From IMG/VR virus record IMGVR_UViG_3300021310_000004: DNA of 64,000 bases; one strand, written 5' to 3'. The translations under genes were made by a program, and so were the position numbers. This stretch comes from a virus (Duplodnaviria > Heunggongvirae > Uroviricota > Caudoviricetes). Each line of letters starts with the position of its first letter. Positions within the stretch are counted from its first letter, which is position 1. Below, piece by piece: positions 13,316 to 53,105 of the stretch. A model generated the notes under the pieces. That model saw only the letters and a program-made list of their open reading frames with translations, was not told the DNA's origin and searched no databases.

Positions 13316-13333
13316 GTATTTCATATTCACTTA

Positions 13334-13370: not shown

Positions 13371-13440
13371 CGCCTGACAGGATTCGAACCTGCGATATAC
13401 CGGTTAAAAGCCGGTTGCCATACCACTTGGCTACAGACGC
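13369..13440 (-). tRNA. tRNA-Lys(TTT)
   Basis: loop CTTTTAA. Confidence 0.6.
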
Positions 13441-13555
13441 CCATTTACTTTGGTTTTCGATACTTTCGTTTCTGTTTTCGCTTCATTGTTATACCTCTAT
13501 TCTTTTTAGTACATGTTCAACAATAGCTGAACGGCTTATAAGTTCCCAATATGTT

Positions 13556-13810: not shown

Positions 13811-13863
13811 TTATAAATCCTCTATCCATATACAACCAGGATATATTTATACCTTTTGAGGAA

Positions 13864-13937
13864 TACCCCTTCCGAGATTCGAACTCGGAAAAACTTGATT
13901 TTGAATCAAGCGTGTATGCCAGTTCCACCAAAGGGGC
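13864..13937 (-). tRNA. tRNA with CAA (Leu) anticodon but short (type I) variable loop
   Basis: loop TTCAAAA; variable TTTTT; discriminator A. Confidence 0.4.
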
Positions 13938-13941
13938 CTAG

Positions 13942-14022
13942 TACAGGTGAAGGGATTCGAACCCTCAAGCTCTAGGCCACCTGATCCTAAGTCAGGCCTC
14001 TGTTCCATTCGAGTACACCTGC
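13942..14022 (-). tRNA. tRNA-Leu(TAG), type II
   Basis: loop CTTAGGA; long variable arm. Confidence 0.5.
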
Positions 14023-14027
14023 ATAAG

Positions 14028-14112
14028 TGCTCCCGATGGGACTTGAACCCATACGTCATTTAAGACCTCGGTTTTTAAGACCGATGCGTGCTGCCAATTA
14101 CGCCACGAGAGC
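14028..14112 (-). tRNA. tRNA-Leu(TAA), type II
   Basis: loop CTTAAAA. Confidence 0.5.
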
Positions 14113-14199
14113 ATGTGCTATTCAGTTTTAAGTTCATAAGTCGGAGTCGTAATCGTAACAACATCGTTTTTTAATTCCTTTCTTTTAATATCTATAAAG

Positions 14200-14282
14200 A
14201 GCTCCGTGTAGGATTCGAACCTACGTGAGGTTTCCCTATCTGCTTACAAGGCAGGTGCAATCGTCCACTATGCGAACGGAGC
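14200..14282 (-). tRNA. tRNA-like, anticodon reading TGT with 14-nt variable region (atypical)
   Basis: acceptor GCTCCGT/ACGGAGC, loop CTTGTAA. Confidence 0.35.
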
Positions 14283-14349
14283 ATATAATAGATTAGAACT
14301 GCGATGTTCCGATTGGATACGGTTAGTCCACAGACTAATCTATTTTAAG

Positions 14350-14421
14350 AGCACTATACGGGATTCGAACCCGTGTCCCCGGCTTGGAAGGCCAGAATCT
14401 TGACCACTAGACGAATAGTGC
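14350..14421 (-). tRNA. tRNA-Gly(TCC)
   Basis: loop CTTCCAA. Confidence 0.6.
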
Positions 14422-14533
14422 ATATGTGAAAGTCTTTTGCGGTGGCAATCAACGCCAAACCTATTATCCATTCTGGATCGTGGCTCCTGCACCATTGTTG
14501 CTTTGTTCCTATCGGGACCCGCGACTTTCACAG

Positions 14534-14606
14534 TGGAGTATACGGGGATCGAACCCGCCATCTTCTGGTTGCAAGCCAGACGGCACCCCATTGCGCCTTA
14601 TACCCC
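14534..14606 (-). tRNA. tRNA-Ala(TGC)
   Basis: loop CTTGCAA. Confidence 0.6.
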
Positions 14607-14609
14607 ATA

Positions 14610-14690
14610 TATTACGGTGTACTGTAGCCGGATTCGAACCGGCGCATCACTACCACTGTAGCTGCCTTAACCGCTTGGCTATACAGCGCC
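14610..14690 (-). tRNA. tRNA-like element, anticodon undetermined
   Basis: T-arm GCCGGTTCGAATCCGGC, D-arm AGCCAAGCGGTTAAGGC; anticodon arm non-canonical. Confidence 0.3.
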
Positions 14691-14798
14691 TGTAACCTTC
14701 TATAATCTCTTAGGCACCGTGTCATTAGGGCTAATTAACTATAGGACCAGCAAGACGTACTAAAATCTGACTAAAAATTAGTACCGCTTGGAATTAAG

Positions 14799-14872
14799 CG
14801 ACTACAGTGGGACTCGAACCCACGATCTCCTGATAGACAGTCAGGCGGATTAACCAACTCTCCTATGCAGCC
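14799..14872 (-). tRNA. tRNA-Asp(GTC)
   Basis: loop CTGTCTA. Confidence 0.6.
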
Positions 14873-14954
14873 ATATCATCCGGAGCCTTTCTTACTCCGG
14901 ATATATTATTTTTGTTCGTAGATAAAGAAGTGCCTGTTTTCTTATATCCACTAA

Positions 14955-15027
14955 TCACCTCTGTGGGATTCGAACCCGCGTTTCGAGATTGAGAATCTCG
15001 TATCCTAGGCCTCTAGACGAAGAGGTG
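14955..15027 (-). tRNA. tRNA-Glu(CTC)
   Basis: Glu-type D-arm TCGTCTAGAGGCCTAGGA; loop TTCTCAA. Confidence 0.55.
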
Positions 15028-15047
15028 ATTCATAATGTTCACAGAAT

Positions 15048-15150
15048 CAATGCAGATGGATTCGAACCACCGCTCTATCCGCCCTGTCCGGGCGTTGTTT
15101 TGCCTTTGGAGTATGTCGGCTCCTACAAACTATACACCGTATGTGAACAT
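15048..15150 (-). tRNA. long tRNA-like element (about 100 nt), anticodon undetermined
   Basis: T-arm GGTGGTTCGAATCCATC; no canonical fold found by hand. Confidence 0.25.
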
Positions 15151-15248
15151 TATCTTCTGCCGTATTGATTACACCTCTTGTCCTCAGAGGAATCGACAGG
15201 ACTTGTACCCAACATACTTGGACTTTGTACATCGAATACAAGAATTCA

Positions 15249-15321
15249 GTGTCCCCGGATGGAATCGGACCACCGCGTTCCGGGCTTCAACCGGATGCTC
15301 TGCCAACTGAGCTACAAGGAC
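15249..15321 (-). tRNA. tRNA-Phe(GAA)
   Basis: stem TCCGG/CCGGA loop TTGAAGC. Confidence 0.55.
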
Positions 15322-15431
15322 TTGTTTGAAGCATTAAAGTCGCTTCAATTCACTGCGTATTTTATTAAGGTAACATTTGCTCTAACCCTTCGCGCCAGAT
15401 AAAACATATGTTAAACCCGGTACGAGTCCCA

Positions 15432-15515
15432 AGCCAGAGAGTCGAACTCTGCGAGCACAAGTGCGGAGGATTTACAGTCCACCCCGTCTCCGTAACGGTT
15501 TAGCAAGGGTTACTT
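15432..15515 (-). tRNA. type II tRNA-like, GTA (Tyr) anticodon reading; acceptor imperfect
   Basis: loop CTGTAAA; T-arm CAGAGTTCGACTCTCTG. Confidence 0.3.
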
Positions 15516-15602
15516 ATATTGGTTGCTATAATAATAATCAACCATACTATCACCTTCCTTTTGTATTTGTTTTGATAAAGGGTGCCTGTTCCTTCATCGT
15601 AG

Positions 15603-15675
15603 CGGGTCCAACAGGCTTCGAACCTGTGACCTTCCGGTTAACGGCCGGACGCTCTACCAACTGAGCTATGGATCC
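15603..15675 (-). tRNA. tRNA-Asn(GTT)
   Basis: loop CCGTTAA. Confidence 0.6.
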
Positions 15676-34012: not shown

Positions 34013-34156
34013 CTTTGTTTTTATTCTCCTTTCTGCGATGGTAATAGTTTTGTTACGGATTAAATATGAGCAAGGTAAATGGCACAAAAAAAAAGAGGCC
34101 CGAAGGCCTCAATTCATGAATGGAGAACTTAACGTGCGGTCTGCACGCTAAGCAAG

Positions 34157-34229
34157 ACGCAGAGGTAGGAATCGAACCTACGACCTCCAGGTTATGAGCC
34201 TGGCGAGCTGCCGCTGCTCCACTCTGCAA
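34157..34229 (-). tRNA. tRNA-Met(CAT) family
   Basis: loop CTCATAA. Confidence 0.55.
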
Positions 34230-34323
34230 CATTGGCACCAAATCATTGGTACCAACATGAGAATGCCCGCAAATTCAATAACATTGCGGATTTGGCTAGA
34301 AGTATTTGCACTTTTATTGTGCA

Positions 34324-34395
34324 GTGACTCTTACGGGAATCGAACCCATGTTACCGCCGTGAAAGGACGATGTCTTAACCGCTTGACCAAAGAGC
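34324..34395 (-). tRNA. tRNA-like, Glu-type (TTC reading), anticodon stem imperfect
   Basis: loop region CTTTCAC; D-arm TGGTCAAGCGGTTAAGACA. Confidence 0.35.
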
Positions 34396-34535
34396 CAGAA
34401 GGCGGTACCACTGCCGCGTTAATACCGTAGCAGAGGTACCAATTTTGTTAAAAGTAAGTAGTGCATTATACCTATTTAGTCATTATTGCAATGCGTTGGG
34501 GGAGGTGAGAAAATTCGCACCGCAACAACAACGAA

Positions 34536-34621
34536 CGCAGTATCCAGGATTCGAACCTGGAAACCGATTGCTCGGATGGCGGATTTCGAATCCGCTGCTG
34601 TACCAATTGAGCCAATACTGC
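34536..34621 (-). tRNA. tRNA-Ser(CGA), type II
   Basis: perfect acceptor GCAGTAT/ATACTGC; loop TTCGAAA; long variable arm. Confidence 0.55.
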
Positions 34622-34805
34622 ATATGCAATCCATAAAAACACCCTTCACGTCCTAATACTTACGACGATCAATCGAATTCCGGATTGCGATACCGAGTAG
34701 CACCATTTGTTCGAACCGCAGGTGATATCGGTATCAATTTTTCTGAAAGTATTACGCAAAGCGGTTCTCGGAATAACGCACTTCGCATCTTTCTATTAGG
34801 ATGAA

Positions 34806-34900
34806 AACGCCGGCCATAGGACTTGAACCTATATCAGGGACCATATAGTGGTTTGATCTCCAAGAGCCAGCATAAGCAATAGACTTTCGCCTTACCACAC
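34806..34900 (-). ncRNA. tRNA-like fragment / structured element (T-arm ATAGGTTCAAGTCCTAT, no matching acceptor)
   Basis: T-loop consensus without complete cloverleaf. Confidence 0.2.
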
Positions 34901-35420
34901 TACAACTATCTTTATTCGGCCACCACTCGCAAAGGCTGAACCACACCAACGTCTCGGCATAGCTTCTTTACGGCCATCCGTAAACGGACAGCTACCATGG
35001 ACGGGAATCACATTACCCGCAACGTTCACCAGACATTCAGCTATACTGTAAAGATCTGTTATTATCCCTTGAATATCATATCTTCGGAAACTGACATATG
35101 GCTACTTGCTCTTATCCTCCGTGTTATAGGCTTGTTGCCAAACCATCAAATCAAACGGACTTGTTTTGGTTTTCCCTACTGTTTGCACGATGACCAGTCG
35201 CCGCATATAGGGTTCTTCTCTTCTCGAGCGTCTATTGCGTCCGCCACTAAGGACAAAGCTTTAAGTAAAGTTGTATCGCAGCACTGCAAACCTCTTTTCC
35301 GTTTTACCGGATTCGCGAATATTTGTTACCAAATACCACACTCCTAAACGATCAACGTAATCCGTAGTTCGTTCGAAGACTAAGGTCTGCATCCATGCAC
35401 AGAGTCAGTGTCATACACAT

Positions 35421-35508
35421 GGTTATTGCTAGTGGAATTATTAGGATTCGAACCTAGATGCTAAACATCCTTGTTTTGCACCACCCACCAATAGAGCGAT
35501 AATCCCAT
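35421..35508 (-). ncRNA. tRNA-like element with 9-bp/4-nt-loop hairpin in place of anticodon arm
   Basis: acceptor GGGATTA/TAATTCC, T-arm TTCGAATCC, internal TGCAAAACAaggaTGTTTAGCA. Confidence 0.3.
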
Positions 35509-35584
35509 ATGACTTTTGGTAAAGCAGATGTCGAACTGCTAAGGTAATTATGAAAAAAGAAACACGCATCAAACTGGATGCATA

Positions 35585-35617
35585 TATAAATATGATTCGA
35601 ATTTTTGGAAACTAAAA
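35585..35617 (-). promoter_or_regulatory. class B extended motif (TTTAGTTTCCAAAA-N9-CATATTTATA minus-sense)
   Basis: same architecture at 29645, 36746, 58346, 59776. Confidence 0.45.
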
Positions 35618-35618
35618 A

Positions 35619-36698
35619 CTAATCTTCTTCTACTTCGATTCCATGATCAGAGAGCTTCTTTTTCAGCTTATTAATTTCCTCCTGAAGCTTTCGATTCTCA
35701 ATACGAAGCTCATTGTTCTTGATTGTCTTTTCATCAAGAAGATCCTTCGCATTTGGCTTATCGTCCTTAAATACTTCTTCGTACTTCTGTTCGAACGAAG
35801 AAATACGCTTCTCAGAAACACCACTAGCTTCAAGCAGCAGCACAACCGTATTCTTATCCAGATCCTCATTCACGCTCTCACCAAGGCACTCACGTTCAGC
35901 AATATACTCACTAAGAGTTTCCTGGATATCTAACAACGTATCGTCATTGTCATCCTCAGTGGAAGGACCGGCCACAATCTGTTCAAAAGCTGTACGCTTC
36001 TGATCCGATGTATATCGACCCTCAACTCCGAGCCCATTTACCCAGAATTCTGTATGCGGTTCCTTTGCATTCTTCGTGTAGCACAAGATGCTATGAATAT
36101 CTGCGCTTCTATCATTGAATGCCGGGAATAAGAATCCAGTGTTTACGGCTCCAACAACCCAGTCGCGTTCTCTCGCACCAATATTATCCTTATCGGTTCT
36201 GTAACTAAGGCCAGGCTTAGATAAATCGACCGGACAAATCGCACACAAGATATGATCGTATACGACCTCGGATTCATCCAGTGCTAAATTATCGGTCGTC
36301 TTAGTTGGGACATCATATACGTCATGGAAAAGTACAATCAAATAATTGCCGACGTAATCAAAGGTCTCAATCACATGATCGTAAAACGCATCTAAAACAG
36401 CGTCGTCGCGAAGCCTAGACTCTCTCAAACTCATAAGAATCTTATGTTCCTCACCATTCAGCTCAGCCTCGGTTGTATACTCCAGGTTCATCAAGTTGTT
36501 GTTAATCTTTCCGGATAAGCACTTGTTCGCAATCTCAAGGAACTTAAAGAATTCCTCATCCTCCAGATTCAACATTGTGTTTCCAAACGTAGTAACCTTT
36601 TCTTTGCCGGCGTTAACATAGCAGCCACACACACGATCAATACTGCAGCTTTCCTTTTTTAACCGGCGCTTCAATTCCAGCACTTCTTTGTGATTCAT
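35619..36698 (-). CDS. DUF4317 family protein
   Basis: N-terminal MNHKEVLELKRRLKKESCSIDRVCGCYVN resembles DUF4317 N-termini; AGAAAGGAA RBS. Confidence 0.5.
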   Translation of the reverse strand: MNHKEVLELKRRLKKESCSIDRVCGCYVNAGKEKVTTFGNTMLNLEDEEFFKFLEIANKCLSGKINNNLMNLEYTTEAELNGEEHKILMSLRESRLRDDAVLDAFYDHVIETFDYVGNYLIVLFHDVYDVPTKTTDNLALDESEVVYDHILCAICPVDLSKPGLSYRTDKDNIGARERDWVVGAVNTGFLFPAFNDRSADIHSILCYTKNAKEPHTEFWVNGLGVEGRYTSDQKRTAFEQIVAGPSTEDDNDDTLLDIQETLSEYIAERECLGESVNEDLDKNTVVLLLEASGVSEKRISSFEQKYEEVFKDDKPNAKDLLDEKTIKNNELRIENRKLQEEINKLKKKLSDHGIEVEED

Positions 36699-36788
36699 AG
36701 AAATTCCTTTCTGCAATAAAAGTCCGGCTTGCTTGCCGGCATTAATAAATATGCTAATGACTTTCGGAAACTAAAAGTTTCCAAAGAG

Positions 36789-36860
36789 CTGGGCATACTG
36801 GATTCGAACCAGTGAATGCGGGAATCAAAATCCCGTGCCTTACCGCTTGGCGAATGCCCA
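36789..36860 (-). tRNA. tRNA-Gln(TTG)
   Basis: acceptor TGGGCAT/ATGCCCA; loop TTTTGAT; Gln-type D-arm. Confidence 0.65.
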
Positions 36861-36923
36861 ATACCGACTTTTGATAAGGCAGATGTCGAACTGCCTCATG
36901 TATATATTCATGAAAGGAGAAAG

Positions 36924-36996
36924 AGCTTACGATCAGACTCGAACTGACGACCTACTGATTACGAATCAGTTGCGCTACCAACTGCGCCACGTAAGC
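36924..36996 (-). tRNA. tRNA-Thr(CGT)
   Basis: loop TTCGTAA. Confidence 0.6.
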
Positions 36997-41981: not shown

Positions 41982-42074
41982 GAGAACGGATAAGGGAGGA
42001 ATCGAACCTCCGACCATCAGGTACTATTATTGACCTAAGTGCTGCCAACTTACATCTATCTTATCCATGTTGAC
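41982..42074 (-). ncRNA. tRNA-like element (perfect acceptor GGATAAG/CTTATCC, T-arm GGAGGTTCGATTCCTCC) with non-canonical anticodon arm; copy 1 of block B start
   Basis: read directly; duplicated at 44643-44735. Confidence 0.35.
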
Positions 42075-42301
42075 CGGTAGTGCCCAACGGTCGTTGCGTT
42101 TCGTGTGGTTGCAGCCCACTACTTTGCTTTCCCTCAGCCAGGCTCTGCAAAGCCCCAATAGGACGACACTATCACGTTACTTGCAATATGTACTCCCTAG
42201 AGCCGCCTTTTGGGACATGGTGGTGGGCTAATCCACATAACATATTACAAGCCTTTTAGGTGCTAACCTCGGACAACTTTTACGTCATATCCGTTTGACG
42301 A
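42075..42301 (-). ncRNA. conserved structured block B, copy 1 (about 230 nt); second copy 44736-44958
   Basis: about 90% identity between copies; no ORF conserved. Confidence 0.4.
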
Positions 42302-42425
42302 CGTGGAAACGAAGGGATTCGAACCCATACCGGACTTATTGTATCTATCTGTGCACCGATATTTTGATACAATAAGGAGCCTTCTTACAGATATTGTCTG
42401 CTGTTCTACCACTTGAACTACGTTT
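42302..42425 (-). ncRNA. tRNA-like element with giant extra arm (11-bp stem CTTATTGTATC/GATACAATAAG) between anticodon and T arms
   Basis: perfect acceptor GGAAACG/CGTTTCC, D-arm GTTC/GAAC, T-arm GGGTTCGAATCCC. Confidence 0.35.
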
Positions 42426-42583
42426 CCATATTCGCACCATACAGAGGCTCCTATTGGTAGCTTACTATGGCACTTTGCATTTGTTCTAATTTACGAACTA
42501 CTTCTTTAGCGCGTTTTTACGTAGCGATAATGCACGTACCGGCTACGGCTTAATCCTCGCATCATACGATATGCGATTGAGCG

Positions 42584-42656
42584 TGAATGATAGGAGGTTC
42601 GAACTCCTGGCCACCGGATTAAAAGTCCGGTGCTCTACCAACTGAGCTAATCATCC
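42584..42656 (-). tRNA. tRNA-Lys(TTT), second copy
   Basis: loop CTTTTAA. Confidence 0.6.
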
Positions 42657-42837
42657 ATATGTATCCTTGAAACTCCCTTTGGCCTCCGGCCCTGATCCAG
42701 AACTAAGGATACAATACACGGTGCTGATCAATGACGAATAGAATGATACAGGCTTGTTACCGTATATAGTTTTTCGTATTGGCTTACTGAAGCAAGATTC
42801 GTCTTTTATCCAGTGCTTCATGCAATACTAGGAAGAA

Positions 42838-42925
42838 TGGACTCAGTGGGATTCGGACCCACATTCGCGAGTGTTCGCTCTTTCATCTTAAACACTTAAG
42901 ATGGCTTTTCCTTTTAAGCTATGAA
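42838..42925 (-). ncRNA. tRNA-like element with 8-bp/4-nt-loop hairpin replacing anticodon arm
   Basis: T-arm GTGGGTCCGAATCCCAC; ATCTTAAGtgttTTAAGAT. Confidence 0.3.
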
Positions 42926-43464
42926 TCCATGTGCGGAACCTACCCACTTCTCCGCTGTGCGAATCATCAGGTCAACCAGGTCAACACTGTCCAACAACCA
43001 CCGCGCGGTATCCGCAGAACCAACAGTCCACGGGCCGCCTCGCACCCCATTTCAAATCGGCCACTAAAGCAGGACCTCTCTGTAAATAAACCCCGGCTTT
43101 ATCGAAATATCGAATGGTGCCGGAAACCATATATAGGCACGTTCACAATAAGGATTCGCCATGGCTCGATTCGTTACTAATTGCTTCAACAGCTGACGTC
43201 TACACCGATACAAAGCAACGTTTACACCTTCTCTCAACGAAGGCTAGAAGATCTACCACATATGAACAAAAGCCTAAATAGATGCCTTTGTCTCGAACAT
43301 ATCTCTTTAAAGCTACGTCTTAAAGAGAGCAGCCTATACCTGCCGACACCTACTGGTATGATACCTATCTATGCGTCCATCTCGTACGACGCAGGCATCA
43401 TACATACCACCTGATCTTATTTGTTTGTGCAGTGCTATACTGCTCGGAGTCCTGCTCCGCATAG

Positions 43465-43600
43465 CCTCTGACGGACTCGAACCGACAACCTTCTGTCCAA
43501 GGCATATTTTCCCGACTTAATGTACACTCCATCGGTACTTCTATCTTGCCCCTGGACTTGCTCCAGCCAATTAAGCTAAGAGGCTACAAGTGGGCCGGGT
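43465..43600 (-). ncRNA. tRNA-like element with about 52-nt insertion between anticodon-stem halves (mini-intron-like)
   Basis: acceptor GCCTCTT/CAGAGGC, D-arm, T-arm GTCGGTTCGAGTCCGTC; GTCCAGGGGC...GCCTTGGAC pairing. Confidence 0.3.
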
Positions 43601-43728
43601 AGGATTCGAACCTACGATACATACAGACTTTTACAGCTGATATTACATCTGCGCCCTGTGCCTGCTCGGGTACCGACCCATATCCGGATTTTTTGTACAG
43701 GTATCCGGGAACCTGCTGCATAATCTGC

Positions 43729-44274
43729 TTAGAAGTACTTCTTGTAAAGATCCTCAACAAACGGAACCTTGATCTCTTCGTATCTAAGTGCGCGTAATGC
43801 TGCCATTAAGAACATTAAGAACTCAAACCAGTTACATACGGTACGTAAGATAGAAAGCAAACTATTGATTGCGCCAAAGTATACGCTGATACCGATTGTG
43901 CTAAGTAAGCTTGAAATCACGCTAAAGGTGTCGCCTGGAAGTTCAAGCACCTTGTAGAATACGGAAAATACGATTGATAACATCAAAGACTTAATTGTGG
44001 CGCTTGTGATGTACTCGTTCTTCTCAATCAAAAGAGCATATCCTAAGATCAAGAGCAGCGGTACGTAACCACCAAAGTATCCGCAAATAAATGCGAAAGC
44101 TGCGATCAAACTAACACGAATTCCCTCTTTGGTTCTTGGAATTCCAGCACCATTGAAGTTAGAATCTTTACCGAAAGACTTCACTTCCTGCATTGTCTGA
44201 TTAATAGTGTCCTTTGCCGCGTTACCAACGCTGTTTGCCATGTTCTGCATGGTCTGCTGATTGTTTTCTGTCAT
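43729..44274 (-). CDS. membrane protein (hypothetical) embedded in the ncRNA island
   Basis: ORF with TM helices. Confidence 0.45.
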   Translation of the reverse strand: MTENNQQTMQNMANSVGNAAKDTINQTMQEVKSFGKDSNFNGAGIPRTKEGIRVSLIAAFAFICGYFGGYVPLLLILGYALLIEKNEYITSATIKSLMLSIVFSVFYKVLELPGDTFSVISSLLSTIGISVYFGAINSLLSILRTVCNWFEFLMFLMAALRALRYEEIKVPFVEDLYKKYF

Positions 44275-44304
44275 TTAATTACTCCTCTCTAGTTTATTAA
44301 TATT

Positions 44305-44527
44305 AAGACGTGCACAGTTTTATGCCGAACATGTCTATATGATATCCGACCGGGATTGCACCGGCACCCTTGGAGAAAAGTGTACTAAGCCAGTTCAACG
44401 ACGCTCGACTTTATACGACGGATATCGCACCAGTGTCTCCGGACCTCGTATGGTCCCACCAGCGGATTCACTTTAGCGGTAGTGAATCAAACGCTTTCAT
44501 CATTGCAGGTTTTTGTTCCCGCTAGAC
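44305..44527 (-). ncRNA. conserved structured block A, copy 2
   Basis: see copy 1. Confidence 0.4.
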
Positions 44528-44642
44528 ACAAATTCGGGCCTCACCTCAGCTTGTCCCTATAAAGCTCTCGTAGGGCTTTGTTCTTGCAAACAGTACTACA
44601 ATTTGCGTTTCCGCTCAGTACCGAGGTCGCAATGCCTCCTGG

Positions 44643-44985
44643 GCGAAAATGGATAAGGGAGGAATCGAACCTCCGACCATCAGGTACTATTATTGACCTA
44701 AGTGCTACCAACTTACATCTATCTTATCCATGTTGACCGAAAGTGCCCAACGGTCGTTGCGTTTCGTGTGGTTGCAGCCCACTACTTCGCTTTCCCTCAG
44801 CCAGGCTCTGCAAAGCCCCAATAGGACGACACTATCACGTTACTTGTAATACGTACTCCCTAGAGCCGCCTTTTGGGACATGGTGGTGGGCTAATCCACG
44901 TAACATATTACAAGCTTTTTAGGTGCTAACCTCGGACAACTTTTACGTCATATCCGTTTGACAGCGTGGAAAGAGGGGGATTCGA
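44643..44985 (-). ncRNA. block B copy 2 (tRNA-like element + about 225-nt conserved RNA)
   Basis: see copy 1. Confidence 0.4.
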
Positions 44986-46178: not shown

Positions 46179-46925
46179 AAAAACCTCCATTCTAGAATAG
46201 CTCTTAGGTCAGCCGGCCACACATTTTAACCGCAAAAATACTGTCGGTTGGTATTTGTTTCCAAAAACCGGAACGTGGGGAATTGAACCCCATTCCAAGG
46301 ACATGCAACCTTGAAAAGTACCGCTCGCCAGGCAGACGTACGGAGAAAGGAGTTATAATACCCGTACATCAACGAAACTATCACAAACATCGCGATTTCT
46401 CGCGAGTGGACTAGACGGGAGTCGAACCCGTGTCCGAAATAGTTACTAATTAAGAGTCTTAACGCTGTTGGGAGCGAAGAAAATCTCGCCTGATCCACCA
46501 CCTGTTTTCGTACCGCCAAAGCAGGAAAGATAATTGTGGTTTCGTCTTTTGAACCTTACAGAGTACCAAACTCCAATCTATCTGTAAGACAGGCGTTTTT
46601 CATGTCGAAGCTATCTAGTTATTAAACTAGGCAGCAACTGCCATAGGACGTACATTAGATCTTGCGTCTAATTTTAAGTGATCACCGTAACGTGGTATAT
46701 CAATTCCGAGCGAACTCTTAATATTCACTACCCCGTCGAAACCATTACTAGCCCAGAGGAGGACCGCCTATTACGGGTAAGTTCCAACAAAGGAACTTAG
46801 GTTGACTTTCACATTGTCAAAACAAAACCAAGCTCTTTCGAGCCAAATCATAGACGCAGGAAACGAACCTGCCGTCTCGAATCGATATATTCGGTGATAA
46901 TTCCGTTCCACATCGATTACAATAT

Positions 46926-46965
46926 TAATACGTATCATTGGACGTCATTTTGTGACAAAAAATCA
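46926..46965 (-). promoter_or_regulatory. class A bipartite motif
   Basis: TAATACGTATCATTGG-N7-TTTTGTGACAAAAAATC. Confidence 0.45.
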
Positions 46966-48246
46966 TAAATCCATATCCAGGCTTGGTTCTATCGCGTCAT
47001 ATTCTAGATCCGATTCAATTGAACTTCCAAGATCACTACCCACGGCCTGCTCATTTGATTCGGTCAATGCCGCCTCAATATTCGTGCTTTCGACCTCAAA
47101 CGAATGATCTGGCGCATTAAACTCTAACAGCCGGTCACAACCAACTTCTTTGGCCAGTTTCAAGCAGCCAAATACATCACGCGAATCCGTCGTTTTTATC
47201 ACGCACATATGACCTTGAGGATGAACAAAGAAATCTACATTCTCGGTCAATCCATATGATTCAAGCCGTTCTTTCGAGAAATCAATCTCCGGTACCAAAC
47301 TACGTAACTGAATCTCTTTCTTTTCTTGGTTCGTACACATCAATAGCTTTACGTTTGTACCACGAAATACAGACGTGTCCGCAATCTCGCTATCAAAGCT
47401 AAAAATTTCAACGTTCGGGCCATGAAGTCGTAACTCTTCCTTGATGTACGCATTAAGCATCATCTTCGTATGATTTTGCGTCTCTTTTTGCTGCTCGATA
47501 TTTGAAATTAGATTCTCGTTCTGGTTCGTTAATGCTGCTACCAATGGATTTAATTTTGTTGTTTCGTGTTCTTGCTCTAAGTACTGATTTGTGATAGCCT
47601 CAATGCCGTCTCTAGCTTTTGCGAACGACGCGTCATTTCCTTCTGGAATCGTAAAAGGCATCCATATTGGTACCATTGAACGTACGTAGTCAGACACAAT
47701 AGCCTCTCGATCTCCTGTCGGAAGATTACCATCTTTATCTGGAAGCAAAAATCTAGCCGGTACGGTTTCTTTGCCGGCCGTCGTATCCTTTACTTCGATT
47801 GGACGGAGTACAAAGTCACGAAACTGATTTTTAACATCCAACTTCGATTCACCATCACGCAACGTAAGTTTTCCAGACTCAATCCACGTATCTATAATCT
47901 TGTCGCCCCAGATTTCCCATACGAGCCCACACGCGGCCTTTTGATTTGGACCCGATTCATGCTCGTAGCATCTCGCACCTGGCTGATGATGGTCATATAA
48001 TCCGCCGCCAACATCAGCAACAACAATATTCGGATCCTTTAATGCAGCTAATATCGTGTTATCGTCTCTTGTTCTGAAAACCTTTATCTTAGGATTAATT
48101 TGCTTTAGTTCCCAGGCGGCCATAACATCATCTGCATGTGGAATTCCATCATGAACGAACATTTTGTTTGGAATCCGATTATCGTCCGGCGTCCAGTTTA
48201 CTTCTATAATTCCATACTTTTTGTTATACGTTTTGAGCACAGTCAT
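46963..48246 (-). CDS. MYG1/UPF0160-family metal-dependent hydrolase-like protein
   Basis: FVHDGIPHADDV and YDHHQ motifs typical of MYG1; class B motif 25 nt upstream. Confidence 0.45.
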   Translation of the reverse strand: MTVLKTYNKKYGIIEVNWTPDDNRIPNKMFVHDGIPHADDVMAAWELKQINPKIKVFRTRDDNTILAALKDPNIVVADVGGGLYDHHQPGARCYEHESGPNQKAACGLVWEIWGDKIIDTWIESGKLTLRDGESKLDVKNQFRDFVLRPIEVKDTTAGKETVPARFLLPDKDGNLPTGDREAIVSDYVRSMVPIWMPFTIPEGNDASFAKARDGIEAITNQYLEQEHETTKLNPLVAALTNQNENLISNIEQQKETQNHTKMMLNAYIKEELRLHGPNVEIFSFDSEIADTSVFRGTNVKLLMCTNQEKKEIQLRSLVPEIDFSKERLESYGLTENVDFFVHPQGHMCVIKTTDSRDVFGCLKLAKEVGCDRLLEFNAPDHSFEVESTNIEAALTESNEQAVGSDLGSSIESDLEYDAIEPSLDMDL

Positions 48247-48365
48247 CCCCTCTCTTTCTTTTACAATCCTTTTAAATATGGGGATGCTAAATGGAAACAA
48301 AAAAAAAGAACCTATGCATAACGCACAAGTTCTGTTAATATCTTTATTTTCGAAATTGAAAATAT

Positions 48366-48602
48366 AGCGATGACACCTTGTTAACTGATAGTCCTCTCGG
48401 ACTAGAGTTTGCTAGAGATTAAGCATCGAACAGCCTCGATATCCTTATCAACCGATAGTTCTTTCGGACGTTCTATTATTAAAGTATCGGATTATAGAGC
48501 CTCGATACCATTGCTAACCAGTAGTCCTATCGGACGCTCAAGTTTAATTCACTGGTTTGTTGTCCCCTCGATACCATTGCTAATCAGTGGTCCTATCGGA
48601 CG
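48366..48602 (-). CRISPR. CRISPR-like mini-array 1: four 37-nt repeats (48366, 48434, 48500, 48566; consensus CCTCGATACCATTGCTAACCAGTAGTCCTATCGGACG, first copy degenerate), spacers 31/29/29 nt
   Basis: conserved repeat ends CCTCGATA...CGGACG, unique fixed-length spacers, 66-bp period; orientation uncertain. Confidence 0.45.
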
Positions 48603-48708
48603 TCAAATATGGTGGCCTGTACGACAAGTTCTACTACATCTAGCATGTAGTCCTACCTTGTTTTCCAGGGCCGGTTCGGCTAAAAGCCAGGACGATCGTT
48701 CGCCCTAA
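48603..48708 (-). ncRNA. conserved 105-nt tail of array 1 (about 85% identical to 49536-49641)
   Basis: shared hairpins (GCCGGTTCGGC; ACTACATctagcATGTAGT). Confidence 0.4.
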
Positions 48709-48713
48709 TTATT

Positions 48714-49166
48714 TTATACGAAAATCGCATCTAACCAGCCGCCCTGATAAATGCGCGGGCCATTGAAAAACTTTTCACACTCGATCCGCCATCCATCAAA
48801 CTGGTATACGATCTTATTTTCAGTTTCATCATCTGGCTCGCCGAGTAACTCTTTTGCGATTTCACAACTTTTTTCAAATCGGCGATCCTGATATTCACGC
48901 TTCGGAATTCGCAGCATTTCATCCAATCCGTCAGAGTAAATGAAATGAGCCGCGCTTAACACATAATCTCCGTCCGGCAGTGGAACAAAATCACACTGAG
49001 CATATCCGGAATATCTTTTTTCATCTTTCAAAAAATAGGCATCAATAATAGGAACAGTAAGATAGGTTCCTTTATTTCTAACGATATGCCATTGTATGTC
49101 TTTCTTTTTTAGTTCACTTAAACGATCATTCGGTCGTAATTCATACCCACCTAAATTAAAAATCAT
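48714..49166 (-). CDS. hypothetical 150-aa protein bracketed by the two array+tail units
   Basis: TAGGAGAAGGA RBS before MIFNLGG. Confidence 0.45.
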   Translation of the reverse strand: MIFNLGGYELRPNDRLSELKKKDIQWHIVRNKGTYLTVPIIDAYFLKDEKRYSGYAQCDFVPLPDGDYVLSAAHFIYSDGLDEMLRIPKREYQDRRFEKSCEIAKELLGEPDDETENKIVYQFDGWRIECEKFFNGPRIYQGGWLDAIFV

Positions 49167-49301
49167 TCCTTCTCCTACACAAAATCTGTGACCCGTTCGT
49201 TTATTGCTACATTTTTTTGTCAAATTCTCGTGAACTGGTCCTCATCTTCACTTCGATATACCATTTGAACAATACCATTTTTTGAACACTTTTCGGAAAC
49301 T

Positions 49302-49535
49302 CTTCGACACCCTTGTTAACTGGTAGCCCCCTCGGACAATCAATCACGTTCTTTCACATTCAATGACCTCGATACCGTTGTTAATCAGTAGCTCTCTCAG
49401 AGCGCGGACTTGACCAGAAGTAAGTGGGTAAACCTCGATGCCCTTGTTAACCGGCAGCCTTCCCGGACCATAAGTACAAGTCGGTGAGCTGATGCAACCC
49501 TCGATACCCTTGTTAACCAGTAGTCCTCACGGACG
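49302..49535 (-). CRISPR. CRISPR-like mini-array 2: four 37-nt repeats (49302, 49367, 49433, 49499), spacers 28/29/29 nt
   Basis: same repeat family as array 1; spacers unrelated to each other. Confidence 0.45.
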
Positions 49536-49641
49536 TCAAATGGGGTGGCTCGTACGACAAGTTCTACAACATCTGGAATGCAGTCCTACCTTGTTTTCCG
49601 GAACCGGTTCGGCTAAAAGCCAGGACGATCGTTCGCCCTAA
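49536..49641 (-). ncRNA. conserved 105-nt tail of array 2, directly 3' of the TnpB-like gene
   Basis: see 48603-48708. Confidence 0.4.
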
Positions 49642-49840
49642 AAATATCTATGATTCGTTCTTGTGTGCCGTATTCTTTATTATGAGATGCAGCCACGCAC
49701 CAATCGTAACCATATCTCTCACTCGAACAGTACTTAGATGTTCAGACACGCCACCAAGAGAAATGGATCCAACCGGGCTAAATGCCATAAAGCCAATTAA
49801 TACAATCAAAACTATACTGATTATATCCGTTGCTTTGACA

Positions 49841-51268
49841 CTACGCTTCTTCATCGCTTTCAATCCTTCCTTCATAAAGCTTTGCTGCATAATACTGTCT
49901 GTATCCTGCTGAGTAGTCCATATCCTTAAGTTTAACCTTTTCTACGCCCTGGTAACCAGCAGCCTTTAATTTCGCATCCATAAGCGTTACCAAAATCGCT
50001 GGCGCATTGTGGCCGATTTCGCTACCTTTTTTGCGCTTCTTCTTCGGACGACCAGATTCTGTAACTTCGTCGCCTTCTTCAAACTGTTTTCTCATGGCCG
50101 CCCATTGGAACGGATAATCGTTTACGACCACACGGTCGCCATACGAAAGAATCTCGTTCGCTAAAATATGACGCTGAATCGAACGTTGCTCCGTTTCGAT
50201 ACGCTGCAGATTCGCCTTCTTATTACGAGCGTCTCTATAAGTCTTTGTTCGAACCCATGTTAAGCGTCGACGTTTGCCATTTTCCATGATTCCATGTTTA
50301 ATGGTTCCATCCTCGTTATAATTGTCCGGATTTGCACGTCTACTAGCTTCATCCATGACCCTTTGCTGATCCGCAATTTCATCCGCAAAATCCGGAATTT
50401 CTTCAGACAAATCTTTAAAGATTAATCCGTCTTTGGTACAAATTGTAACAGATGTTGTATCAATATACACTCCTACTCTTCCTGATCCAATTTGATTCTT
50501 AATCTCGCCTGTATTCTTATCGTACTTAATTGCAGGAACGCCTGTTACTGTTAACTGAACTAAGTATCTATAATTTCCTCGTACCCTCTTTCGAACGATA
50601 CGGACAATCTTAATATCTCGGTCCAACATTTCAATTAACCACAAGTCCTTACGATCAATCATTAACGGCATCTTGATTGTCTTCCCCTTATTGGTACCAA
50701 ATGCACACCATAAGTCTTCATTACCGTTACGGTGTAATACCGTCTTTCCGTCGGCCCCGATTAAGCGTAAACCGCTTTTGCCGGCCGAAGCAATAGAGCT
50801 CCAGGTGTCGAACTTCTTAAATGACACTTTCTCGCCATTTCGGAATAAACAAGTCTCAAATGCGGCCCACATCGGTTTCGAAATAGACGGGCCAACGGTT
50901 GCGGACGGAATATTCTGGCTGTAAACTTGATAATACCTTGTAGCGGTATTCGAAAAATCGAATTCAGACATACCATATTCACGGAGCAACTGCTTTTGCA
51001 TATCTGTGGCCTGTTTAAATTCTTCTGTTTTCTTGGCTTTATTCCGCTCTTTTTCGTCCTTAATCTTGTAGACTTCATTGATTACGGCCTTTGAATTCTG
51101 GTATCGAGTGTCCGCCAGCATCTTTTTGTACCGTTTGATCTCGAAGCCAAGCATGGCGTTATATACCTTACGGTACAATTCGAAGCGCTTAAACAAGATG
51201 TCTTCCTGCCACTTTTCAGTTTTTAAAGGAATCTCAATGACGGACATTGATTTAGGTTCTTTTGCCAT
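49841..51268 (-). CDS. TnpB/Cas12-family (OrfB_IS605-like) protein, predicted nuclease-dead
   Basis: N-terminal IEIPLKTEKWQEDILFKRFELYRKVYNAM matches TnpB N-terminal pattern; RuvC-I region GVYIDTTSVTICTKDG; RuvC-II position reads VVVND (E replaced by N); LMDAKLKAAGYQGVEKVKL matches TnpB YKA..G block; protein ends before zinc finger and RuvC-III. Confidence 0.55.
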   Translation of the reverse strand: MAKEPKSMSVIEIPLKTEKWQEDILFKRFELYRKVYNAMLGFEIKRYKKMLADTRYQNSKAVINEVYKIKDEKERNKAKKTEEFKQATDMQKQLLREYGMSEFDFSNTATRYYQVYSQNIPSATVGPSISKPMWAAFETCLFRNGEKVSFKKFDTWSSIASAGKSGLRLIGADGKTVLHRNGNEDLWCAFGTNKGKTIKMPLMIDRKDLWLIEMLDRDIKIVRIVRKRVRGNYRYLVQLTVTGVPAIKYDKNTGEIKNQIGSGRVGVYIDTTSVTICTKDGLIFKDLSEEIPDFADEIADQQRVMDEASRRANPDNYNEDGTIKHGIMENGKRRRLTWVRTKTYRDARNKKANLQRIETEQRSIQRHILANEILSYGDRVVVNDYPFQWAAMRKQFEEGDEVTESGRPKKKRKKGSEIGHNAPAILVTLMDAKLKAAGYQGVEKVKLKDMDYSAGYRQYYAAKLYEGRIESDEEA

Positions 51269-51756: not shown

Positions 51757-52026
51757 CTATACACGCCTTATTCCGTTGCCGTGCAATAATTTCCAAATCA
51801 TTATTGGCATCATGATCTTACGGGCTGATATGAGAACAATCTCATTCGGGTCTAGCCATCGAATGTGGCCAGCTAAAATTGTTCCGCTCTTAAATCTAGT
51901 CAATCTACCGTTTTCATTCCACTTCCATTTGCATTCATCAGATATAAAACTTGAGGCGAATCCGCCCTTAAATACTACTGTTATCTCGTATTTCTTGCGA
52001 TTTCCTCCAAAGATGCGGGGCCGCAT
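51757..52026 (-). CDS. hypothetical protein
   Basis: ORF coupled to ParM-like gene. Confidence 0.4.
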   Translation of the reverse strand: MRPRIFGGNRKKYEITVVFKGGFASSFISDECKWKWNENGRLTRFKSGTILAGHIRWLDPNEIVLISARKIMMPIMIWKLLHGNGIRRV

Positions 52027-53105
52027 TAAGCGGCACCCTCTTCTTCATTACCTTCATTGTCTTCGTCCTCTTCAGGCTCCTGAATCAGCTTAATTTTAAG
52101 CGTATCCGAACGGCCGCACATTAGAGCCAAAAATCCGATTGCATTAACCATATTCGGGTTCTCCGGCATAGCAGTATTCTCGCCGAAAGCTTCAATCAAA
52201 TCATCACCGATTAAGCTTACTCCGCCACCGATAATAACGAGCTGCATAACATCTAAGGACCAGTTCTTAGTACGAATCTCTTCGATCATGTCTCGAACGT
52301 AATTCTCTAAGTACCGCTTAATAATCTCTGCGGAACGAGCCTCTTTTTCCGGGTTTGGATTTCGGAATTTCAGCTTACGCGGGCCAGAAATTGCTTCGGC
52401 AGCCTTCCGCTTCGTAATCGTTGTCTGGAGTTCGTTCGATAATTCCTGAGCCAATCCAGATACAAGGAAATTTACGCCCTTTGTGGTGGTTCTTCTAGAT
52501 GTTGGATCGATATCTCCGCCACTGTAAATCGTCATATTCACATTCAAGTGGCCGATATCAAGAACACCAACTGCCTCGGAATAATCAATTCCGGGCGTAA
52601 AAATAGCTCCGATGGTCTCCGGATATACATAATGTTGCACGATCTTGAAGGTCTTCTCCATAATGTCACCGGATGCTGCACGATATGTAACGGTATGCTC
52701 TCCAAGTGGCAAGATGTAGTCACGATAATTATTACGTTCATCAACCACTAAATAAGAATCAACCGGGATTCCAACACTGGCTACTACTTCATCAGTGTCA
52801 TTCTCTGAACACTCCTTCGCAATCGCGAGCATGGTACATAACTTATGGATCAATGTCTTCTTGGAAGAATCAAGCTCTGCTTCGATAGACGCGCACTTAC
52901 CAACCTTATAGACGCCACCTTCGAATCCAACAATATAGGTACCATTACCAGGTTCATCATCATCGAACGTCGCGTTTTCCTCATATGCTGTTCTAAAAGC
53001 ATGCGTGAAATATGGAACCTCGTTACTGTTTTCCAAAAAAGCCGGATTTAAGACCGCGCTTTTGGTGAATGACTTACCAGAATCTACTGCGATATATCTC
53101 TTCAT
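52026..53105 (-). CDS. actin-like ATPase, ParM/StbA-like
   Basis: N-terminal IAVDSGKSFTK phosphate-1 motif, later DIGHLNVN and IIGGG motifs. Confidence 0.55.
   Translation of the reverse strand: MKRYIAVDSGKSFTKSAVLNPAFLENSNEVPYFTHAFRTAYEENATFDDDEPGNGTYIVGFEGGVYKVGKCASIEAELDSSKKTLIHKLCTMLAIAKECSENDTDEVVASVGIPVDSYLVVDERNNYRDYILPLGEHTVTYRAASGDIMEKTFKIVQHYVYPETIGAIFTPGIDYSEAVGVLDIGHLNVNMTIYSGGDIDPTSRRTTTKGVNFLVSGLAQELSNELQTTITKRKAAEAISGPRKLKFRNPNPEKEARSAEIIKRYLENYVRDMIEEIRTKNWSLDVMQLVIIGGGVSLIGDDLIEAFGENTAMPENPNMVNAIGFLALMCGRSDTLKIKLIQEPEEDEDNEGNEEEGAA

Follow-up and report, generated by a model that had tools for sequence, protein, structure and literature searches.

A large tRNA-rich phage encodes a small, predicted nuclease-dead TnpB/Cas12-type protein beside scaffold RNAs and repeat-spacer arrays

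Cas12m, the small effector of type V-M, works with crRNA alone. The compact, TnpB-like TranCs are active nucleases, and many type V subtypes have no adaptation genes. Phage-encoded CRISPR systems and mini-arrays in inter-virus conflict use nuclease-active effectors (e.g. CasPhi, type I-F) or host Cas proteins (PMC11656645). TldRs each rely on one fixed guide, aimed at a conserved host promoter, and have a stable partner gene such as fliC, oppF or csrA (10.1101/2023.11.30.569447). Here we analysed a 64,000-nt stretch of DNA (the window) from a large tRNA-rich phage that encodes a small 475-aa TnpB/Cas12-type effector. With a probability of roughly 60%, we read the locus as a type V-like CRISPR system, phage-borne, adaptation-less and nuclease-dead, whose role is to silence rival mobile elements through DNA binding.

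The effector gene lies on the minus strand (49841..51268) and starts with ATG; a GTG further upstream (51316) had no support from homologues. All of the motif strings on which the earlier note had based its assignment were found in the 475-aa translation, namely the N-terminal (IEIPLKTEKW..., residues 11-40), wedge-like (NYRYLVQLTVTG, residues 232-243), RuvC-I (GVYIDTTSVTICTKDG, residues 266-281, including Asp270) and RuvC-II-position (RVVVNDY, residues 379-385, including Asn383) strings. The motif KLKAAGYQG occupies residues 433-441 and the stop codon follows 34 aa further on. At the sequence level, the likeness of the effector to TnpB is weak. Over positions 5-334 of 389, it matched the NCBIfam guided_TnpB profile with an E value of 4.8e-4 (19.5 bits, the cutoff being 100); it matched Pfam HTH_OrfB_IS605 with 0.0077 and PHROG 506, annotated as 'transposase', with 9.5e-11. 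Active paralogues bridge the effector to the TnpB profile, as they matched the effector at E ~1e-55 to 1e-60 and guided_TnpB at 1e-13 to 4e-24, up to profile positions 2-388 of 389.

The AF2 model of the effector (pLDDT 87.5) had Cas12m2 as its best Foldseek match in the PDB (E 1.4e-11), and the listed PDB matches at E <= 0.001 were TnpB, Cas12-family proteins (including Cas12k of the V-K CAST) and LaTranC, with one Fanzor2 chain besides. Foldseek matches also included Cas12f, Cas12p and dCas12f, and structure matches in BFVD were TnpB/Fanzor-like 'transposases'. The modelled protein unambiguously takes the bilobed WED/REC/RuvC fold of TnpB and Cas12. The earlier note's assignment to the TnpB/Cas12 family was supported, and so was its description of the protein as phage-borne. 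Cas12m chains gave no sequence-level match to the effector in phmmer and profile searches against the PDB, and identity to Cas12m in structural alignment was 12-15%.

Loss of the nuclease site, also claimed from the DNA alone, was borne out by alignment. The active paralogues read GIDIGTQT, V-E-T/K-M-N and VQRD(L/M)YSA, whereas in the same alignment the effector and its subgroup read YIDTT and VNDY, and their C-terminus ends before the block equivalent to the zinc finger and RuvC-III. Asp270 of RuvC-I is kept, the RuvC-II Glu is replaced by Asn (Asn383 in the window) across the whole subgroup, and the block with the RuvC-III Asp is missing. The guided_TnpB match of the dead group ends at positions 331-334 of 389, and no CxxC occurs in the effector. 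An intact D-E-D triad with a zinc finger, or a true C-terminus in another frame, would have overturned this assignment; neither was found, and the downstream frames supplied no zinc finger. The ORF overlapping the 3' end of the gene, considered as a frameshifted C-terminus, is an unrelated membrane-type ORF of 80 aa (49648..49890, minus strand) and is conserved as such, with 81% identity, in the closely related locus L053. This ORF has a weak copy in L057 and is absent from L055 and others; being kept in the closest relatives only, it is probably not a core part of the system. A vestigial RuvC-III helix was also considered, in which YR[QDKSE][YF]YA resembles QRD[LM]YSA by eye; hhalign did not align the two, the position expected to hold Asp varies, and the idea was dropped. 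Near the C-terminus, K-D-[MVI]-D-Y contains a conserved acidic residue, which together with Asp270 may allow some residual chemistry, e.g. RNA processing. The effector is predicted to have no cleavage activity at all.

One search gave 149 homologues of the effector, and another gave 1230 clusters at E <= 1e-3. The truncated form has a conserved length of 455-475 aa across dozens of clusters, and comparison with the L053 protein (P0002, 83% aa identity) gave a pN of 0.097 and a pS of 0.74. Since length is conserved and purifying selection is strong, the dead, truncated family is not a set of pseudogenes. The nearest active relatives, at 27-33% identity, are mobile, multi-copy IS200/IS605 TnpBs in which the D/E/D triad is intact. 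One active paralogue belongs to an element of 2160 bp that has a Y1 TnpA C-terminus and occurs in one genome as five copies of 99.9% identity. The best reading is that the locus derives from the IS200/IS605 TnpB lineage. No gene was conserved beside the effector across the family, the neighbours differing by lineage, and the neighbouring 169-aa and 97-aa proteins had no homologue in any related locus. Among the called neighbours within 5 kb in seven look-ups, there were no Pfam matches to Cas1 or Cas2. The INPHARED collection held no near-identical phage.

Downstream of the gene and on the same strand, two units were found, each made of a 105-nt RNA (tail) and four 36-nt repeats, the first of which is fused to the tail. 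Tail 1 (49535..49639, minus strand) forms a structured, tracrRNA/omegaRNA-like scaffold of helices P1-P5 with a 3' anti-repeat (ACCC..UUGAC) predicted to pair with the first repeat, and scored 148.9 bits against the covariance model R1. Tail 2 (48602..48706, minus strand), a second copy of the scaffold, is 88% identical to tail 1, scored 155.1 bits and carries the anti-repeat ACCAU, which covaries with its own repeats (AUGGU). Tail and first repeat together fold like an omegaRNA or a natural single-guide scaffold. Across relatives, 37 of the 42 base pairs in the scaffold model had compensatory double changes, and 86.7% of scaffold cells were paired compared to 34-39% in slid controls (0/500 shuffles as high). 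RNAalifold on a plain MAFFT alignment recovered P1 and P5 with 11/12 pairs compensated; the G.U pairs and GNRA loops fit the gene-sense strand only, and the tail RNA tracks effector phylogeny. The coupling of the effector to an RNA tail and a repeat-spacer array, proposed in the earlier note, was supported; all of them lie on one strand, and RNA and array are present in a second copy. Two details of that proposal needed amending. The 105-nt 'tail' is real and structured, but it lies upstream of the repeats in the transcribed (minus) sense and not 3' of the array; and the gene does not directly abut it in the window, where tail 1 begins ~200 nt past the gene with the small ORF between, although in L055 the tail does start 8 nt past the stop codon. 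Rfam gave no family in the region, the sole match being a chance PyrR (E 0.93). No sigma-70 promoter ahead of the tails passed the scan, and the arrays may be co-transcribed with the effector gene. An intrinsic-terminator-like hairpin with a T-run (48307..48333, minus strand) stands immediately past array 2.

Both arrays are on the minus strand. Array 1 (49302..49534) has four 36-nt repeats, each with a 5' GNRA-type hairpin (49499-49534, 49433-49468, 49367-49402 and 49302-49337), separated by spacers at 49469-49498, 49403-49432 and 49338-49366 and followed by a post-terminal unit (49273-49301). Array 2 (48367..48601), which with its tail spans 48367-48706, likewise has four repeats, the terminal one degenerate (48566-48601, 48500-48535, 48434-48469 and 48367-48402), with spacers at 48536-48565, 48470-48499 and 48403-48433. 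The spacers in the window are unique and 29-31 nt long. All array-bearing group-B loci that were fetched (L001, L002, L005, L053, L055, L057, L059, L061, L064, L067-L071, L089, L108 and L145) had the same layout on the same strand, with up to ~14-15 repeats in relatives, and tail and repeats were found in no active-TnpB locus searched. Chromosomal Butyrivibrio homologues have a single tail and no array. Turnover of spacers was rapid, with none in common between the window and L053 and differing content even among the near-identical phages L067-L071 and L089. The family's leader/first-repeat junction, ATTTGA(C/G)|GTTT, together with its 36-nt repeats, 30-nt spacers and ...AAAAC repeat ends, is type II-A-like.

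Three independent spacers of relatives matched other temperate phages exactly, a target thus being found for 3 of the ~113 family spacers. In nine Lachnospiraceae-group phages, the L005 spacer (23/23 nt) had three matching sites in each genome, all of which lie just past a -10-like box and ahead of the terminase operon. The spacer of L069, L089 and L071 (29/29 nt) matched the replication module of nine IMG/VR contigs. The spacer of L061 and L062 (30/30 nt) matched L194 at a protospacer overlapping the -10 element in a TTGACA-16-TATATT promoter, which lies upstream of an integrase gene and of AbiD, a prophage defence gene (PADLOC, 2.4e-66). On the guide-identical strand, positions -4 to -2 read TTT at each of the three protospacers (flanks TTTC, TTTA and TTTT), and the target contigs have neither the effector gene nor the tail. 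Two of the three are at promoter or transcript-start positions and one lies inside a small ORF, i.e. in coding sequence and not at a promoter; because of this one, and as -10-like hexamers were not enriched in the spacers (23/72 against 21.8 expected), promoter silencing is not general. The window's own eight spacers had no match among GenBank phages at E <= 10, in PLSDB plasmids or, for the four 21-mers searched, in IMG/VR. None matched elsewhere in the window, where the best 18-mers had 3-5 mismatches, which is chance level.

A structured RNA and an array on the strand that encodes a dead TnpB/Cas12 protein are best read as parts of an RNA-guided DNA binder, and as relatives' guides match other phages, its most likely role is to block competitors, or the defence genes they carry, without cutting. 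The effector would bind guide RNAs from the two downstream arrays, transcribed on the minus strand with the gene or just after it. The 105-nt tail and first repeat would serve the first spacer of either array as a natural single-guide scaffold, similar to an omegaRNA. Later spacers would depend on pairing in trans between their repeat (hairpin and ...GUUAACAAGGGU...) and the tail anti-repeat, as tracrRNA pairs with crRNA; this putative trans function would involve ~9-10 bp only, with mismatches in some repeats. The complex would then recognise double-stranded DNA by a T-rich motif on the 5' side (TTTN) and by complementarity to ~20-30 nt of the guide, and would stay on the DNA without cutting it, so blocking transcription or replication of co-resident mobile elements. 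Silencing would be the outcome of such binding, and the elements silenced would include phages co-infecting the cell, prophages resident in it and the defence genes of either. The window's own spacers presumably behave like those of relatives. Of the two roles suggested earlier, inter-phage competition, or else counter-defence, gained indirect support, from relatives and not from the window's own spacers; host takeover gained no support.

Host takeover is nonetheless the core of one rival explanation, that the dead TnpB is a TldR-like regulator whose guides repress genes of the host chromosome during infection. The host is probably a rumen Lachnospiraceae or Butyrivibrio. TldRs share the protein's RuvC decay and truncated C-terminus, the fliC-associated TldRs are phage-borne too, the lack of a target for the window spacers leaves room for host targets, and the chromosomal Butyrivibrio homologues, with one tail and no array, are more TldR-like. 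We nevertheless consider it unlikely. Spacers are not conserved even between phages with 83%-identical effectors, no conserved partner gene was found, every target found is phage DNA, and CRISPR-type acquisition is indicated by arrays of up to ~14-15 repeats, by spacers of a precise 29-30 nt and by the PAM-like flank. The label of TldR-like regulator, given in the earlier note, is thus the weaker analogy: multi-spacer arrays, the complete turnover of their spacers between close relatives and, in relatives, temperate-phage targets with 5'-TTTN argue for a Cas12m-like mode of CRISPR interference or silencing rather than for a TldR.

Equally improbable, in our judgement, is that the dead protein does no more than locate the target, which a separate phage or host nuclease, helicase or other effector would then destroy or modify. 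Precedents exist in Cas12k with Tn7 proteins, dCas12f with sigma-E and the association of Cas12m with Cas3, and at the protospacer within a coding region a simple roadblock is less obviously effective. However, the neighbours of the effector differ in every lineage with no gene conserved among them, and at the 2/3 protospacers in promoter or transcript-start positions binding alone would be enough.

There is a slimmer chance that the locus exploits host CRISPR components, either through type II-A-like mini-arrays used by host Cas9 or through sequestration by the dead protein or its RNA (anti-CRISPR mimicry). The family's junction, 36-nt repeats, 30-nt spacers and ...AAAAC ends do resemble type II-A, and phage mini-arrays and a phage dCas9 decoy are already known. 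But TTTN lies on the type V side (repeat 5' of spacer), whereas Cas9 uses the 3' side; covariation links the tail RNA to its own repeats, and this RNA follows the effector phylogeny; and the window's repeats are no longer type II-A-like. That the gene is a functionless, decaying TnpB remnant beside unrelated repeats, as its weak TnpB profile matches and lost catalytic residues might suggest, is effectively refuted by the covariation of the adjoining RNA, by purifying selection (dN/dS far below 1) and by the exact phage matches of relatives' spacers, alongside the length held at 455-475 aa over dozens of clusters and the confident AF2 model.

Returning to the preferred reading of a DNA-binding, nuclease-dead type V-like system, no published description of the effector family was found, nor any paper citing the Butyrivibrio homologues WP_029318967 or WP_022754058; the family may coincide with one of the unnamed V-U* groups of Altae-Tran et al. 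2023. More tentatively, it could represent an undescribed, phage-specific type V subtype that stands between omegaRNA and CRISPR, with a dead effector of 455-475 aa and a scaffold RNA that is at once array leader and tracrRNA, fused to the first repeat. Its junction (ATTTGAC|G..., 36/30-nt periodicity) might mimic type II-A so that host Cas1-Cas2-Csn2 loads the spacers, and its guides might let large lytic phages switch off prophages and abortive-infection genes, e.g. at the AbiD promoter, with the host chromosome uncut. A dead effector would make sense here because cutting a prophage means cutting the host chromosome that the phage needs. If true, a very small (475 aa) phage-encoded and naturally nuclease-dead multi-guide DNA binder would join Cas12m, Cas12k, TldR and dCas12f, and large phages would carry their own CRISPRi-like system against other phages and prophage-borne defence genes. 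The fused tail and first repeat would be a living example of the proposed route from TnpB omegaRNA to tracrRNA and CRISPR array, and, given the type II-A-like leader junction, trans-adaptation by host machinery could be tested directly. Small size and multi-guide arrays also make the effector a candidate compact scaffold for gene-regulation tools.

Among known systems, the locus resembles type V-M Cas12m (Wu et al. 2022, in PMC11656645; 8hio, 8hhl) in having a small type V effector that would bind DNA without cutting it, in its place on mobile elements without adaptation genes and, judged by relatives, in spacers against rival mobile elements and a T-rich 5' PAM. Sequence identity is ~12-13% only. 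Unlike Cas12m, in which a complete RuvC has gradually decayed, the window protein is ~120 aa shorter and its whole zinc-finger/RuvC-III part is gone; a 105-nt structured scaffold RNA heads every array, and the carriers are large phages where those of Cas12m are plasmids. With the TldRs (Wiegand et al., 10.1101/2023.11.30.569447), some of which are phage-encoded, it shares TnpB ancestry, RuvC decay with C-terminal truncation, an omegaRNA-like scaffold downstream of the gene and, presumably, action by DNA binding. It differs from them in arrays of 3-14 unique, fast-turnover spacers of 29-30 nt, in the phage targets of relatives and in having no partner gene, and the sequence relationship is detectable at superfamily level only. 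In common with phage-encoded CRISPR systems and mini-arrays (PMC11656645), its spacers are virus-borne, in relatives with matches to other viruses or prophage-borne defence, and come without an adaptation module; unlike those, it has a dead effector of its own. The fold is that of IS200/IS605 TnpB (ISDra2 TnpB, 8exa), from which the locus differs in having no TnpA and no transposon ends, arrays in place of one guide, and a lost catalytic Glu and C-terminal domain. As expected of type V, unique-spacer arrays stand beside the effector (two in the window) and, like those of most Cas12 loci, come after the gene. Finally, TranC and other early type V proteins (LaTranC, 9jfq) are compact, TnpB-like and a structural match, and, in keeping with the model in which omegaRNA split into tracrRNA and crRNA, the guide here can be read either as a fused omegaRNA (tail, first repeat and spacer) or as separate repeat-spacer units; in contrast to the nuclease-active TranCs, the window protein is predicted to be dead and would use its tail in trans.

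The effector gene (49841-51268, - strand) encodes a 475-aa product, for which the ATG at 51268 was chosen over an upstream GTG at 51316 because homologues share the same MAKEP... start in our alignment. The motif strings from which the earlier note had read a TnpB/Cas12-family protein were all present (residues 11-40, 232-243, 266-281 and 379-385), as was the early stop it had placed ~40 aa after a YKA..G-like block, the C-terminus lying 34 residues past KLKAAGYQG. The TnpB-family signal was only faintly visible to sequence profiles (Pfam HTH_OrfB_IS605, E = 0.0077; NCBIfam guided_TnpB, E = 4.8e-4, profile positions 5-334 of 389; PHROG 506 'transposase', E = 9.5e-11), no PDB chain matched the protein by sequence, and homologues are labelled 'hypothetical protein' or 'helix-turn-helix domain-containing protein' at NCBI. 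Family membership was instead upheld by an AlphaFold2 model built on 38 homologues (mean pLDDT 87.5), whose predicted fold settles the question. The Foldseek PDB matches listed at E <= 0.001 were TnpB, Cas12-family or LaTranC chains, except one Fanzor2 chain; Cas12m2 ranked first (1.4e-11), and the others included ISDra2 TnpB, Cas12f, Cas12p, LaTranC, dCas12f and Cas12k. Matches among viral structures were TnpB/Fanzor-type 'transposases' at <= 13% identity.

Searching with this protein returned 149 homologues; exhaustive searching yielded 1230 clusters at E <= 1e-3, 138 of them at E <= 1e-30. Two main groups were apparent in the alignment. Group A (486-510 aa, 27-35% identity to the window protein) carries GIDIGTQT, V-E-(T/K)-M-N and ...VQRD(L/M)YSA(F/Y)LI, corresponding to a full RuvC D/E/D triad, and its match to guided_TnpB runs the whole length of the profile (positions 2-388 of 389; best E = 4e-24). 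Group A is a genuine insertion sequence: a 2160-bp element comprising a Y1 TnpA C-terminus, tnpB and a ~170 nt 3' end was found in at least 5 copies at 99.9% identity in one Clostridia genome. Group B (455-475 aa) includes the window protein. Its RuvC-I reads YIDTT, with Asp270 retained or, in some members, replaced by Asn, and its RuvC-II reads VNDY, the Glu-to-Asn change proposed earlier (Asn383) recurring in every member. The loss of the zinc finger and RuvC-III was likewise borne out across group B, where the profile match ends at positions 331-334 of 389 and members lack both the Zn-finger-equivalent insertion and the helix with the RuvC-III Asp.

No other reading frame near the effector gene supplies the missing C-terminus; a frameshifted true C-terminus was rejected, as the overlapping downstream ORF encodes an unrelated 80-aa membrane-type protein that is kept as such in the closest relative. 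Compared with the related locus L053, the effector gene is under strong purifying selection (pN 0.097; pS 0.74, with synonymous sites saturated). An acidic residue is also kept across the dead subgroup (KDMDYS, residues 448-453, nt ~49910-49927) within a conserved K-D-[MVI]-D-Y motif just N-terminal of the last helix. It does not align with the RuvC-III Asp of the active paralogues; the window protein may retain residual RNA-processing chemistry.

Downstream of the effector gene, the conserved RNA tail and repeat-spacer array described earlier were both present, but not in direct abutment, as a ~200-nt gap holding a small ORF (49648-49890, read in the gene sense) lies between gene and tail. 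The first 105-nt tail (49535-49639, - strand) is followed by an array of four 36-nt repeats with 29-30 nt spacers (49302-49534, -), an unrelated 169-aa ORF (48714-49223), a second tail 88% identical to the first (48602-48706, -), a second array of four repeats (48367-48601, -) and a terminator-like hairpin with a T-run (48307-48333, -). Flanking ORFs encode an MYG1-family (UPF0160) exonuclease-like protein (46963-48300) and a ParM/ALP_N-type partition protein (52026-53105), and L053 and a second relative, L055, likewise have the ParM-like gene upstream of their effector. At the position of the window's 169-aa ORF and second array, L053 carries a canonical IS200/IS605 element (Y1 TnpA and zinc-ribbon TnpB; 7166-8701) directly after its array, placing an active and a dead TnpB in one phage. 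On its - strand the window also carries all of its 35 tRNA genes and a tmRNA with the tag ARSNVRPMAVAA (10673-15675, 34156-36996, 41986-44738 and 46406-46754); one tRNA call with a 4-base anticodon (gtgt; 42837-42929) could be a frameshift suppressor or a mis-call.

Using iterated nhmmer followed by a covariance model, the tail-plus-repeat unit was found in every array-bearing group-B locus fetched (1-7 copies per locus, on the gene's strand), and no copy was found in the group-A loci searched in this way. Single-sequence folds of 21 divergent copies gave one shared architecture, in which hairpin P1 at the 5' end is followed by a small GNRA hairpin (P2) and a nested P3-P4-P5 stem. In these folds the 3' segment (ACCUUG..UUGAC) is base-paired to ...GUUAACAAGG... 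in the first repeat, so that the GNRA hairpin of the repeat itself lies inside. P1 and P5 were recovered independently when RNAalifold was run on an unfitted MAFFT alignment, with 11/12 pairs compensated. In an alignment of 36 distinct copies, which was fitted to the model and so leans towards it, albeit with a large margin, 86.7% of cells were paired against 34-39% with partners slid by 1-3 columns, 37/42 pairs showed double changes, the covariation score was 0.589 against ~0.07, and none of 500 shuffles reached the observed values. The anti-repeats of the two window tails differ (ACCC vs ACCAU) in step with their repeats (GGGU vs AUGGU), G.U pairs and GNRA loops occur on the gene-sense strand only, and tail identity between the window and L053 is 79% despite the saturated synonymous sites. 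From this pairing, covariation and strand evidence, the tail is therefore an omegaRNA/tracrRNA-like scaffold at the head of the array, and tail plus first repeat is a natural single-guide RNA; later repeats would use the tail in trans.

Two variants of this arrangement were observed. Butyrivibrio chromosomal homologues have a single scaffold copy, which faces the gene convergently, and lack a repeat array (L063 6449-6573, L072 7389-7512 and L107 7389-7512, all on the - strand of the locus), which may represent a single-guide, TldR-like form of the dead-effector family. In one phage lineage, an extra tail, repeat and 29-nt unit lies directly upstream of the effector start codon (~5820-5984 in L067, L068, L071 and L089; 4051-4214 in L069). 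Its 29-nt 'spacer' is conserved among those phages, unlike other spacers, which may reflect autoregulation or promoter context.

Across the family, repeats measure 36 nt with spacers of 29-31 nt, terminal repeats are degenerate, and one rumen genome has ~14-15 repeats directly after the effector gene. Spacers are unique, with none common to the window and L053, and the near-identical phages L067-L071 and L089 differ by spacer gain, loss and exchange. No Cas1 or Cas2 was seen among neighbours called within 5 kb in seven locus look-ups. The tail/first-repeat junction reads ATTTGA(C/G)/G(T)TT... (window 49535-49541 and 48602-48608; also L059, L064, L070 and L108), and AAAAC or AAAAG is a frequent repeat ending. 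Together with the 36-nt repeats and 30-nt spacers, this matches the type II-A leader-anchoring motif, ATTTGAG/GTTT (PMC5382924). As a lead from sequence likeness, spacers may be loaded by a host type II-A Cas1-Cas2-Csn2.

Exact matches were found for 3 of ~113 unique spacers from relatives, and all three target sets were unrelated temperate phages lacking the effector gene and tail. In nine Lachnospiraceae, Coprococcus, Agathobacter and Dorea phages, the L005 spacer matched 23/23 nt, counted from its position 1, at three sites per genome (26771-26793, 27199-27221 and 29020-29042 in L106, PV036411.1). Each site follows a TATAAT/TATAT box by ~7 nt and precedes an RBS by ~40 nt, and one heads a DUF7698-terminase-portal operon. 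This guide targets a ~45-nt element conserved in Heliusvirales before three operons (ACTGGATATAT-N6-7-TTTAGAGCGAATATGTACCTACCGAAAGGGAA, no -35 box), probably a phage-specific late promoter or leader. A spacer common to L069 and L089 (one-mismatch variant in L071) matched nine IMG/VR contigs (4-33 kb) over 29/29 nt; the site falls within a 71-aa ORF that belongs to a replication module and neighbours the replication initiator and an RNase H gene. The third spacer, which L061/L062 has in each of its two arrays (7187-7216 and 8815-8844), matched 30/30 nt in L194 (7869-7898), itself one of those nine contigs. L194 thus carries both protospacers, and two different effector lineages hold spacers against it. 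Here the protospacer overlaps the -10 hexamer of a TTGACA-16-TATATT promoter (11/12 consensus) upstream of AbiD (PADLOC 2.4e-66; Pfam Abi_2 2e-46) and an integrase gene. Since spacers as a set were not enriched in -10-like hexamers, promoter targeting is not general.

Match boundaries coincided exactly with spacer boundaries. The 5' flanks on the guide-identical strand were CTTTC, TTTTA and TTTTT, with TTT at -4 to -2 in 3/3 (estimated chance ~3e-5 at ~31% T). Side and composition are both as expected for a type V PAM/TAM, and they independently support the proposed guide orientation.

Of the readings considered, the best supported is that of a nuclease-dead, type V-like CRISPR system, carried by phages and descended from an IS200/IS605 TnpB lineage. 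Effector and guides would bind rival mobile elements without cutting, at least sometimes at the promoters of their defence genes. A dead effector would suit a lytic phage, as a resident prophage could be neutralised while the needed host chromosome stays unbroken. The window's own eight spacers matched nothing in the window itself or in GenBank phages or plasmids, nor IMG/VR when searched with four 21-mers. Because no target was found for them, three rivals still stand for the window: that its guides regulate the host and that the dead protein recruits a separate effector, which we consider equally unlikely, and that it hijacks or decoys host type II-A CRISPR components, which is very improbable.

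No description of this effector family was found in the literature on TldR, TranC, dead TnpB, phage type V or inter-phage silencing, nor any paper citing the Butyrivibrio homologue accessions. The TldR analogy drawn in the earlier note fails on three features that define that system: one fixed guide, a target in a host promoter and a partner gene. Cas12m is the nearer functional analogue, although by sequence the window protein falls outside Cas12m. On this reading the family is a nuclease-dead type V/TnpB-derived RNA-guided binder; it may be one of the 40 V-U* groups that a large TnpB/Cas12 census leaves unnamed, some of which have altered active sites. What is unusual is its carriage by large phages, the presence of several arrays in a genome with a fused scaffold RNA at the head of each, the type II-A-like leader junction and the spacers against temperate phages, one at an Abi promoter.
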